From the NCBI GenBank assembly GCA_964387675.1, contig CAYLWL010000001.1, positions 144,874-208,873 on the forward strand: DNA of 64,000 bases. Direction: 5' to 3'. Positions 42,001 to 45,000 of this stretch are shown here, one piece after another. How positions within the stretch are numbered: the stretch's first letter is position 1; each line of letters starts with the position of its first letter. Made by a program: the position numbers. The DNA comes from an uncultured Candidatus Saccharibacteria bacterium (GTDB lineage Bacteria > Patescibacteriota > Minisyncoccia > UBA6257 > 2-01-FULL-56-20).

Positions 42001-45000
42001 TCGTCCTCATCTCTCATCTCTCATATCTCATCTCTTACCTCTGGCGGCGGCCAGGAATTCGGTCTCCGTTCCGGAACCGAAAACGTCCCGTCGATCGTTG
42101 GGTTCGCAAAAGCCGTGGAACTCGTCTCTAATTCGCGCGAATTAGAGAATAAGAGAATCGCTGGCTTGAGAGATTACTTCTGGCAAGAACTAAAAAAGAT
42201 TTGCGCGGATGCGGAAGTGAATGGTTCTTGTGGATCAAGAGCTGGCTACATATCACCTACTACTTACTACCTACCCAATATACTGAATGTTTATTTCCCC
42301 AACTATTTAGCCGATGAGCTTCTCACAAAATTTAATCTCGCGGGGCTTGCGGTTTCTTCCGGGTCGGCGTGCCGTTCACGGGCAGTAGAATCTTCTTATG
42401 TCATTGGAGCGCTGGGGTACGACAAAGAACGCGCGAAAAACAGCATCCGTTTCAGTTTCGGCAGGCCAACCACGAAAGAGGAACTTGACAGGGCATTGGA
42501 AATTATTAGGATGAAATTAAAATAAATGAAGAGTAAAAAGTTTTTCAAAAGGCCTCCGTTTCTTGCTTTTGCCCTCATTGTTTTGGGCGCCGTCGTTTTG
42601 GGCGTTACTTTCGGCGCGCCTCCCGCGCAGGCCAACTTCTTGGAAAACTTTTTCAAGGATTACGTTTCTCCGCTTCTCAAAAATCCTCAAGGGGCAAGGC
42701 CTTCCGGCGGACCCGCGTCTTCAACGGTTGAACAGCAGACAAAGAGCAACGTGCCGCTCTATAAGCCAGTCATCGATTATGAAAACGCTGTCGTAGCGGC
42801 GGTGAAGAAGGCGTCGCCCGCCGTTGTTTCTATCACGATTTCCAAAAATGTCCCGGTGCTCGAAAATTGTCCGTACGGTCCTTTTTCGGGTTTGCCTCCG
42901 GAATTCAGGCAGTTTTTTGGAGAAGACATTCCTGGATTCAGCGTTCCGTGCGATACGGGCAAAACCCAACTCAAAGAAGTCGGCGGCGGCAGTGGCTTCG
43001 TGATCTCTTCGGACGGTTTGATTTTGACGAACAAACACGTGGCCGGCGACAAGAAGGCATCGTACACGGTTTTCACGAATGACGGCAAAAAATACGACGC
43101 GAAGATTCTGGCTATTGACCCCGCGCAGGACTTGGCGGTGATAAAGATCTCGGCGAGCGGCTTATCTACGATTGAATTAGGGGACTCTGACGCACTGGAG
43201 CTTGGCCAAACCGCCATTGCCATCGGCAACGCGCTTGCGGAGTTCCGGAACACGGTTTCGGTGGGCGTGATCTCGGGCTTGTCGAGAACGGTGACCGCCT
43301 TTGGTTCCACGGTCGGTTCGGAGACCATTCAAGACGTGATCCAAACTGACGCGGCGATTAATCCGGGAAATTCCGGCGGCCCTTTGCTGAACTTGAAAGG
43401 CCAGGTGATCGGCATCAACACCGCTGTCGCGCAAGGCGCGCAAAGCATCGGTTTCGCGATTCCCATAAATCGGGCGAAGAAGGATATCGCTTCGGTGAAG
43501 GCGGGCGGAGAAATCACGGTGCCGTTTTTGGGCGTGAGATATATAACCGTGACTCCGGACATCGCGAAAGCGCAAAAACTTCCGATTGAGTACGGCGCTC
43601 TGGTGCGCGGCTCGAACGATGGCGCGGCGGTGGCTCCCGGCTCGCCCGCGGAGAAAGCCGGCGTTCTTGCGGAAGACATCATTATGGAAGTAAACGGCAA
43701 AAAAATTGACAAAGATCATCTTTTGGGAACTTTGATTGCCGACCACGCGGTGGGGGACACCATTACTCTTAAAATCAATCGCAACGGAAATGAAATCACC
43801 CTGAATGTGACTTTGGCTCAGAGGTCAAGCGATTAGTGGATCAATATTTTTTCTTTTCCATTATAGCATAATATTATGCTATAATAGAAAAGTTTGCGTT
43901 TACTTTTTGTCGTGTTATAATGTGTACGGCACCTAGAGTAAGCTAGCGTGGCCGGAAAGGATGTGTACCATGGACCATGGTAGCACAACGACAGCGGCGA
44001 ACGGCACGGCGGCGGCGGACGGCGCGGCGGCGAGTGCGATTCCGGAGTCCCAGAGGTACAAGACGTGCCCGCACGGGCACTGCCACAACCACTCACCGGA
44101 GTGGGAAGAACGGGGCAGGGAACTGCGTCCTGAGCGGAGCTTCTTAGGATCCACACATTTTCTCTTCGATTGGCATTGCGGCCGACGAATGAAAAGGATG
44201 CGCTGGCACTTCTTGAAACGCTGCAAGTTGTGCGGGCGGAGCGAGCGGTGGCAGATCGGGCGGCTCACCTGCCTCTGCGAATGCTGTGGTTACAAATATC
44301 AAAACTGAGGAGGTGATTGAGTAGCGTGCCGAGTTCCGGGAGAAGCAACGCCTCCCGGAACTCAGCCCCATAATTTTTTGCTATAATTAAAAGTGCAAAG
44401 CTGAATTCAAATGTCAAATACCAAAAATCAAAATGAAAATGTAAAATATTAGAAATAGCTTTTGTTAATTCCGATTTACCATTTTCCATTTTGATATTTG
44501 CATTTTGCATTATCTATCATGCCAAACTTTCATCGTTTCACCGTAAAGGCCCAAGAGGCGCTGCAGAGTGCGCAGGAACTTGCCGCGCGAAAAAACCACG
44601 GCGAGCTGAAGCCGTTGCACCTTCTCGCGTCTCTTCTCGAAGACGGTCAGTCCCTGGTGATTCCGGTTTTGACCCGGGCCGGAGTCAATATCCAAAAACT
44701 CGGCGAGCAAGTCGAGTTCGAACTCGACCGCACGCCGAAAATCGTCGGCGGCGGAGTGGTGGGCCAGCTGTATCTATCGCAGGAGCTTATGCGCGTCTTG
44801 GATCAAGCGGCAAAAGTCGCCGCTCAACAAAAAGACGAGTTCGTTTCGTGCGAACACTTATTACTCGCGCTTCTTGACACACAATCCGCCGCGAAAGCAA
44901 TTTTGGAACAATTCGGTTTGAGGCGGGATGTTGCCTTCAGAACGCTCGCCCAGCTTCGCGGCTCGGTTCGGATTACCGACGAAACGCCCGAGAGTAAATT

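Follow-up and report, generated by a model that had tools for sequence, protein, structure and literature searches.

Introduction

The gene described here is most closely paralleled by small zinc-ribbon proteins of the ribosome and by short leaders of messenger RNA (mRNA). Ribosomal protein uS14 of type Z and eL43/L37ae, the latter an archaeal and eukaryotic protein, both carry a zinc ribbon. Metallothioneins, another group of small proteins rich in Cys and His, typically contain roughly 15–30% Cys. Among RNA elements, autoregulated leaders in the mRNAs of ribosomal and small proteins exist, as do 5'-terminal hairpins that stabilise the transcript.

We analysed a stretch of 64,000 nucleotides (nt), hereafter the window, from an uncultured Candidatus Saccharibacteria bacterium (assembly GCA_964387675.1, contig CAYLWL010000001.1, positions 144,874 to 208,873). 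In the genome collection it corresponds to contig JACOYP010000002.1 of assembly GCA_016181795.1, and the relatives nearest to it there are Patescibacteria of the Liptonbacteria/Paceibacteria type. Between the genes for an HtrA-type protease (htrA) and for ClpB (clpB) lies an open reading frame (ORF) of 112 codons. An earlier reading made without database searches (the sequence-only reading) had proposed that it forms a stand-alone transcription unit with a zinc-ribbon-like product, and the homologues with invariant Cys and His positions reported below bear this out. Comparative analysis indicates that 43970–44308 is a genuine, unannotated protein gene. Alignments and locus comparisons establish its coding status, its place in a protein family with a fixed ligand pattern, a cassette structure that is conserved and a genomic location that varies. 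Taken as a whole, it is likely that the locus is a self-contained monocistronic cassette for a small Cys/His protein, probably binding zinc and nucleic acid, which was secondarily placed between htrA and clpB.

Results

Homologues of the open reading frame

An exhaustive phmmer search with the ORF product returned 84 cluster representatives at E ≤ 1e-3, 12 of them at E ≤ 1e-10, with a best value of 2.9e-15. The matches are all about 90–120 amino acids (aa) long and align to residues 28–110 of the query. A hidden Markov model (HMM) built from family alignment A2, which includes the window sequence, scored the ORF at 6.6e-31. In a protein-guided codon alignment (84 codons, 11 loci), pairwise identity at the first, second and third codon positions was 0.63, 0.66 and 0.44, and synonymous codons vary freely within the most conserved block, CxHGxC...PEW. 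The sequence-only reading had named two outcomes that would refute it, an Rfam match covering the segment and an ORF lacking conservation as a protein; both checks favoured the ORF, with no Rfam match and a conserved protein. No match came from a word-indexed search of proteins in which the ORF was the sole query, a false negative of the index since the exhaustive search found the family; the exact ORF sequence is absent from a collection of 5.8 billion proteins.

The start codon was fixed at 43970 because the family N-terminus, MDH(S/N)N, matches there. An in-frame version of 115 aa begins at 43961, an unlikely start because this ATG overlaps the Shine-Dalgarno (SD) sequence. The 112 residues include 9 Cys and 8 His; the length and the clusters CPHGHCHNH, CKLCGR and CLCECCGY had been read correctly before, but the count of 12 Cys and 6 His had not.

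Family, ligands and predicted fold

C33, H35, C38, H41, C70, C85, C88, C103 and C105 are invariant in the family and are all present in the window protein. G36, P43, G71, M74, R76, R90, C106 and G107 are nearly invariant, C106 being conserved in at least 90% of family sequences. The family motif is CxHGxC(L/H)xHxPxWE ... (H/C)CGxxMxR ... CxxCGR ... CxCCG(Y). Similarity, ligand pattern and the surrounding cassette all place the window gene in this family of about 100 aa (alignments A2 and A3), whose members are basic, with an isoelectric point (pI) of 7.6–9.3. Searches with the ORF and the family gave no match above threshold in Pfam, NCBIfam or the PDB sequences and only noise in PHROGs and PADLOC, and the literature searched contained no description of the family. 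As far as these comparisons reach the family is uncharacterised, and it was found here only in Patescibacteria or genomes of the candidate phyla radiation (CPR) type, from groundwater.

AlphaFold2, run with 34 sequences, gave a model with a mean predicted local distance difference test (pLDDT) value of 80.8, reaching 87–93 over residues 31–110 and about 50 in the Ala/Thr/Gly tail. Within the low-complexity stretch pLDDT falls below 50 at residues 5–14, and it averages 48–65 over residues 1–30. The core is predicted to be all-beta and to contain long hairpins at 45–54, 63–69, 72–85 and 91–102. C85-x2-C88 and C103-x2-C106, separated by 14 residues and associated in the model with strands 72–85 and 91–102, match the layout of a C4 zinc ribbon, whose knuckles lie about 12–17 residues apart. 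The ligands of CxHGxCxxH, (H/C)C, CxxCGR and CxCC would hold two, possibly three, structural zinc ions in an elongated beta-hairpin fold of the zinc-ribbon type.

Some members depart from this plan. Three metagenomic members (P0040, P0106 and P0108) have an extra N-terminal Cys-rich stretch, MDHNNS..CSCGA..C.SC.DC.CK (CSCGADKKKCASCQDCACK), ahead of the core, and P0046 and P0051 have a hydrophobic C-terminal extension resembling a membrane anchor. In P0100 (L092, 2096–2398), RRYRMC replaces CxHGxC, so that the first Cys and the His of the N-terminal site are lost and the rest is kept; the first N-terminal metal site may accordingly be dispensable.

The clustered Cys and His had also been read as a metallothionein-like metal store or as the precursor of a ribosomally synthesised and post-translationally modified peptide (RiPP). 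The clustering itself and the few members with the added CxC/CxxC-rich N-terminus fit such roles, and the window protein resembles metallothioneins in being small and rich in Cys and His. It differs from them in containing 8% Cys, in its conserved aromatic residues (W, F and Y), in its fixed ligand positions and in a confidently predicted, ordered beta structure. As for a RiPP, about 11 genomic contexts contained no gene for a maturase, cyclase or transporter, and conservation extends over the full length instead of dividing into a leader and a variable core. We regard a role as peptide precursor or metal store as extremely improbable. The small basic protein would bind nucleic acid, probably in association with RNA or the ribosome.

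Promoter, leader and probable terminator

The promoter ttgcgt-N16-TGt-tataat that had been proposed for the gene is present. Its -35 hexamer matches TTGACA at three of six positions, which explains its absence from the output of a consensus promoter scan. The conserved promoters TTGAC-N17/18-T(G)TATTAT(A)AT of family genes in other genomes (CTTGACTTTTT...TGTGTATTAT(A)AT) do align with it. Family leaders open with GGCACCUAAGAAAACGGGUGGCC a few bases past the -10 element, followed by AGAAAGGAGG and the ATG. The arms of a 5'-terminal hairpin recur in 9 of 11 family leaders; RNAalifold predicts seven pairs, and each core pair is kept in eight of nine leaders. At about 83% pairwise identity the hairpin is conserved to a comparable or slightly higher degree than the coding sequence (about 75%). 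Conservation, not covariation, supports this predicted structure. Close copies of the leader motif in about 0.8 Mb of fetched loci stand solely before family genes; a loose pattern also matched a few dissimilar sites.

Downstream of the ORF, GAGTTCCGGGAG and CTCCCGGAACTC (44331–44342 and 44352–44363) form a stem of -25.6 kcal/mol (z = -4.6). The sequence-only reading had called it a strong terminator with a 12-bp stem and T6. Both elements are there, but the T run (44374–44379) begins 10 nt beyond the stem, which is not the textbook form of an intrinsic terminator, and the site is absent from the list of a terminator scan. The 5' arm and the start of the loop (GTTCCGGGAGAA) are similar to family terminators (GGTTGyGGGAGAAATCTC), whose full form is GGGGTTGyGGGAGAAATCTCrCAACCCC with a T-run. 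A groundwater contig described below (L082) keeps the stem through three compensatory pair changes and one change from G-C to G-U. The 3' hairpin is probably a terminator, perhaps a leaky one.

Promoter, leader hairpin, SD sequence, MDH start and terminator are kept together in seven other loci (L087, L089, L091, L092, L094, L095 and L097), and the window has recognisable versions of the family promoter, leader and terminator.

Evidence on the other side

L082 is a contig of 1480 nt from a Hainich groundwater metagenome, sequenced at 2x coverage, in which the order is likewise htrA, cassette, clpB. Among all fetched loci it is the nearest relative of the window: the flanking genes are 71–77% identical, with 46–51% identity at third positions, and its ORF has an in-frame gap of 39 nt (13 codons) in the low-complexity stretch.

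Several observations weigh against the reading given above. Neither the deposited annotation nor that of the collection calls a gene in the spacer between htrA and clpB. The codon usage of the ORF is atypical, with a log-odds score of -0.04 per codon, its neighbours scoring +0.22 to +0.38 and the ORF being the best of the six frames. In L082 a +1 frameshift at 813–892 splits the ORF, with 70 nt compared with 69 nt between the codons of PEW and HCG, and the family HMM matches two frames; the frameshift may be a sequencing error at this low coverage or could reflect decay of the gene in this lineage. Promoter, leader, Cys/His codons and terminator are still conserved in L082. The SD sequence of the window is weaker than the family consensus (GGATG versus GGAGG). 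Covariation in the leader hairpin amounts to one compensatory change, from A-U to G-C in L097, and shuffle controls were not convincingly exceeded. The similarity to uS14 lies far under the family cut-offs, and zinc binding, like binding to RNA or the ribosome, is read from motifs and neighbourhood only.

Part of this evidence is what would be expected if the segment were a structured non-coding RNA (ncRNA) or a long clpB leader and the ORF a by-product of GC-rich composition, an alternative that the sequence-only reading had also raised. The uncalled ORF and its low codon score fit this explanation, as do the three ORFs that overlap in the segment, each longer than 100 aa, which GC-rich sequence would give, and the plus strand folds better than shuffled sequences (z = -3.0). 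In addition, the frame of L082 is broken, yet in blocks such as TGCCC.CACGGGCA.TGCCACAACCACTCACCGGAGTGGG identity is about 95%, third positions included, far above that at third positions of the flanking genes. Against it, the terminal hairpin alone gives much of the folding signal, and no Rfam family matches: the window gave 0 matches at the gathering threshold, E-value mode on 43800–44520 returned microRNA and small nucleolar RNA noise of at most 22 bits, the L092 cassette gave the same result, and ten homologous loci gave tRNAs only. Third codon positions are the least conserved over the 11 loci, with frequent synonymous changes in the same block. We consider an ncRNA very improbable, and it was rejected in favour of a real gene because of the 84 protein homologues, their invariant Cys and His, the codon-position pattern and the MDH start.

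Location of the gene in the window and in relatives

In 80 related loci htrA is mostly followed directly by clpB, with a spacer of usually 80–250 nt, compared with 682 nt in the window. Among the loci fetched, the insert is common to the window and L082 only. Searches of the 80 htrA-clpB loci by blastn, nhmmer and the family HMM detected neither a family gene nor a stretch resembling the element at the nucleotide level, and the 64-kb window holds a single copy of the family gene. Elsewhere the gene has other neighbours (Table 1), and one metagenome-assembled genome (MAG) of Wolfebacteria that carries it between rplS and pheS has htrA next to clpB on a separate contig (L073). In this lineage the cassette appears to have reached its place between htrA and clpB secondarily, by insertion or translocation. 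The sequence-only reading had taken the position upstream of clpB as a sign of control by stress or metal, a view that is hard to maintain for a position that is lineage-specific and exchanged elsewhere for places beside tRNA, transfer-messenger RNA (tmRNA) and ribosomal genes.

Translation-apparatus genes adjoin the family gene in about 10 of 11 contexts, a raw count without a baseline, and chaperone or redox genes in 4–5; no single neighbour is shared by all contexts. Counted by lineage, the gene follows tRNA-Lys(UUU) in three, tRNA-Leu in two and tmRNA in one, each time on the same strand and 98–600 nt downstream. Either an ancestral linkage to tRNA-Lys or a preference for tRNA-proximal sites could account for this. 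By ARAGORN, the 64-kb window itself contains neither a tRNA nor a tmRNA.

The htrA-clpB spacer appears as an insertion hot spot in Paceibacteria, where longer spacers carry unrelated small ORFs that differ by lineage. Those of L014 and L047 hold apparent HicA/HicB toxin-antitoxin pairs, a call made by eye only.

The GC-rich body of the gene had been described as far above a local level of about 48%. The ORF is indeed GC-rich (60.8%, with 200-nt windows up to 61–62.5%), but the contrast was overstated, as GC is on average 50.4% over the window and 53.5–53.8% in htrA and clpB. Most of the excess comes from the low-complexity N-terminal codons (71% GC); the core has 57%. Family genes lie 0–12 GC points above their own locus in 10 of 11 cases. 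Because the excess is family-wide, it points to an effect of amino-acid composition, together with the GCG-rich insert here, and is not evidence of recent transfer; the horizontal origin that had been suggested from composition is thereby left without its argument.

An imperfect direct repeat of 27 nt brackets the cassette (43867–43893, CATAATATTATGCTATAATAGAAAAGT; 44369–44394, CATAATTTTTTGCTATAATTAAAAGT; 23 of 27 positions matching), and both copies include the extended -10 element TGCTATAAT. It was considered as a target-site duplication or attachment site and rejected, being not significant (blastn E = 0.1) and explained mostly by the shared -10 box.

This repeat, the GC content above that of the host, the hot spot and the varying locations, with a tRNA or tmRNA upstream in 6 of about 10 contexts, would suit a small element, mobile or acquired by horizontal transfer, that targets intergenic sites and those close to tRNA or tmRNA genes and that is served by the protein. 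Such an element is decidedly unlikely: integrase, transposase and terminal inverted repeats are all lacking, the gene is single-copy in the window and missing from the 80 related loci, and the GC excess is common to the whole family. No relatives were found in 2.9 million viral contigs, where the sole match fell by chance inside a phage ORF of 583 aa that has no family Cys pattern; there was no viral structure match and nothing significant in PHROGs or PADLOC.

The palindrome upstream of the gene

The 22-bp palindrome TATAGCATAATATTATGCTATA that the sequence-only reading had reported is present exactly at 43862–43883, occurs once in the window and was not found in 100 shuffles even with up to three mismatches; the reported length was too short, as 26 bp are perfect. 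It begins 17 nt past the htrA stop codon and abuts the -35 hexamer of the small gene, the perfect part ending 8 nt before it. Its predicted RNA fold has -17.3 kcal/mol (z = -5.5), and UUUGCGUUUACUUUUU follows it. It contains TGCTATAAT on both strands. L082 carries a perfect palindrome of 22 bp at the corresponding place, but one of different sequence, GTGCTATGCTATAGCATAGCAC, which likewise abuts the -35. No palindrome was seen upstream of other family members, and no second copy of the half-site occurs in the window except the -10-like TTTTTGCTATAAT.

Because window and L082 keep the symmetry and not the sequence, a hairpin role is favoured, such as that of the 3' end or terminator of htrA, and this is the most likely function of the palindrome. 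That a sequence-specific dimer uses it as an operator is less probable: there is dyad symmetry beside a promoter, but the half-site is not conserved in orthologous loci or before other members. The dedicated operator of the sequence-only reading is not supported, and neither is the link to an ArsR-type regulator. The ORF proposed for the regulator exists (12853–13158), encodes no Cys and has no copy of the palindrome half-site near it.

The palindrome enters into a further explanation, in which the protein would work with proteostasis and redox genes, either as a zinc-thiolate switch for redox state or metal or as a co-factor, its expression being controlled through this upstream site. Its adjacency to the -35 in both window and L082 is consistent with this, and so are the neighbours: htrA and clpB here and in L082, dnaK-dnaJ and DksA in L094, DsbD and thioredoxin in L087, a class II ribonucleotide reductase in L083–85 and an HtrA-like gene 3 kb away in L086. 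The MDH N-terminus places a His at position 3, which we take to resemble a motif of the amino-terminal Cu(II)- and Ni(II)-binding (ATCUN) type; this is a lead only. Against such a switch, no neighbour is constant across contexts, the palindrome differs in sequence between window and L082 and is missing before other members, the Cys and His are invariant and embedded in beta-hairpins as in structural sites, and the window lacks the operator that relatives carry before clpB, described below. We hold a redox or metal switch to be unlikely.

The clpB leader

The extended -10 element downstream of the small gene is probably part of the clpB promoter; L082 carries TGTTATAAT in its place. The leader that follows (44392–44530) is predicted to form a single long imperfect hairpin with the AUG in its base (minimum free energy -27 kcal/mol, z = -3.5). 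An analogous AU-rich inverted repeat, TTCAATGAATT...AATTCATTGA, occurs in the clpB leader of L082 at about 1170–1296. The leader could be an RNA thermometer candidate; no Rfam family matches the clpB 5' untranslated region (UTR). In L002, L003, L011 and L021 clpB is preceded, just upstream of the -10 element, by an inverted repeat, TTAGCAATCTC-N5-GAGATTGCTAA, with a T-run and TATAAT after it. It resembles the controlling inverted repeat of chaperone expression (CIRCE) and looks like a variant of an HrcA-type operator. No such operator occurs in the entire window at up to three mismatches.

Table 1. Positions of features at the window locus and of the small gene or spacer inserts in related loci.
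Locus	Feature	Position	Strand	Remarks
Window	htrA, HtrA-type protease ORF	42526–43836		Trypsin_2 and PDZ domains
Window	AT-rich palindrome	43853–43892	none	26 bp perfect (43860–43885); 40 nt with one mismatch
Window	Small-gene promoter (predicted from sequence)	43894–43921	+	TTGCGT (43894–43899), 16-nt spacer, extended -10 TGT-TATAAT (43913–43921)
Window	5'-UTR hairpin	43927–43954	+	Predicted transcript 5' end; GGCACC...GUGGCC, lengthened in the window by an inner CUAG/CUAG stem
Window	SD region GGAAAGGA	43954–43961	+	8 nt before the ATG at 43970; family consensus AGAAAGGAGG
Window	Small-gene coding sequence, 112 aa	43970–44308	+	Basic, pI 9.1; residues 4–28 disordered Ala/Thr/Gly tail; about 31–110 all-beta Cys/His core
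Window	Lineage-specific low-complexity GCG-rich insert	43979–44053	+	Encodes GSTTTAANGTAAADGAAASAIPES; 71% GC; absent from other family members
Window	3' hairpin	44328–44379	+	12-bp stem plus 2-bp extension, 9-nt loop; T6 7–10 nt later
Window	Probable clpB promoter, extended -10 TGCTATAAT	44379–44387	+	Not part of the small gene; followed by a 130-nt AU-rich leader
Window	clpB, ClpB ORF	44519–47161		
L083–85	Small gene after tRNA-Lys(UUU)	tRNA: L083 3831–3904, L084 3832–3904		Facing class II ribonucleotide reductase
L087/88	Small gene after tRNA-Lys(UUU)	tRNA: L087 1354–1427		Facing DsbD and thioredoxin
L094	Small gene after dnaK-dnaJ and tRNA-Lys(UUU)	tRNA: 2656–2727		Facing DksA-type gene
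L089/90	Small gene after rplS and tRNA-Leu	tRNA: L089 2448–2532		Wolfebacteria MAG; before pheS
L092	Small gene after tRNA-Leu	tRNA: 1877–1962		
L086	Small gene after smpB and tmRNA	tmRNA: 3043–3393		HtrA-like gene 3 kb away
L091	Small gene between adk and secY			Opposite strand, spc operon
L096	Small gene before rpsT			
L097	Small gene before rpsA			
L014	htrA-clpB spacer with insert	1080–1741		
L047	htrA-clpB spacer with insert	1093–1591		
L002, L011, L021, L058, L059, L074	htrA-clpB spacers with inserts			

Discussion

Our data suggest that a sigma-70-type promoter, a 5'-terminal UTR hairpin, an SD sequence, an ORF of 112 codons and a terminator hairpin would act in this order as an independent transcription unit. 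The conserved 5' hairpin may stabilise the end of the mRNA or serve as a translational operator. Our best guess for the product is a basic zinc protein that binds nucleic acid or associates with the ribosome.

A more specific version is that the protein is specific to Patescibacteria and associates, through zinc-dependent structure, with the ribosome, rRNA or tRNA, for example as a ribosomal protein or a biogenesis or hibernation factor derived from a uS14-like ribbon, and that it regulates its own synthesis through the GGCACC...GGUGGCC hairpin before the SD sequence. The translation neighbours in most contexts, the basic pI, the strong conserved promoter and SD sequence of the family and the weakly uS14-like ribbon are compatible with this proposal, which is tentative and rather doubtful in so specific a form. 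Should the protein prove to associate with the ribosome, it would bear on the make-up of the reduced translation apparatus of CPR bacteria.

One outcome of the analysis is a gene that the annotation of a CPR genome had missed; gene callers can overlook small ORFs rich in Cys when their codon usage is atypical. Another is a compact, conserved family of at least 84 clusters at 50% identity, in which the Cys/His pattern of two or three sites is fixed. Neither Pfam nor NCBIfam has a model for this family, and its confident predicted fold is without a neighbour among solved structures. Regulation in CPR bacteria is almost unknown, and a promoter, leader hairpin and terminator that travel with the gene offer a candidate cis-regulatory RNA and a candidate for a strong native expression cassette.

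Among described RNA elements, the family leader is comparable to the autoregulated leaders of ribosomal-protein and small-protein mRNAs and to 5' stabiliser hairpins, in that the mRNA has a short 5'-terminal hairpin directly before a strong SD sequence. It differs from them in having no Rfam family and a single compensatory change, and a role of this kind is putative.

Among described proteins, weak similarity recurred only to the zinc ribbons of uS14 and eL43, over about 30 residues that include the C-terminal CxxCGR...CxxC ribbon of the family. The protein eL43/L37ae shares with the family a CxxC...CxxC ribbon on a long beta-hairpin and was the best PDB profile match (E = 0.06 over 34 residues), and the Joint Genome Institute (JGI) names one family member 'ribosomal protein L37E'. 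The profile match is not significant, and Foldseek gave no structural match (E ≥ 2, template modelling score about 0.2). The zinc ribbon of uS14 type Z (NF005974 and NF004424) is similar over about 30 residues (basic-x-R-C-x-(K/R)-C-G-R ... L-C-x-x-C); both proteins are small and basic, and family genes often adjoin translation genes. Thirteen of 34 family members weakly match NF004424, with a best E of 1e-4, and uS14 chains are among the best PDB sequence matches. The family nevertheless scores 13–18 bits against curated cut-offs of 54–77 and covers only model positions of about 8–43, so that it falls outside the equivalog. It has, in addition, an N-terminal CxHGxCxxHxPxW module and the (H/C)CG motif, and it measures about 100 aa compared with 61 aa. 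L091 has a separate gene with a Ribosomal_S14 Pfam match, and the family gene is therefore not the uS14 of that locus. Set beside these known proteins and leaders, the window gene is not a new kind of system; it encodes a hypothetical small zinc protein and is only moderately surprising.

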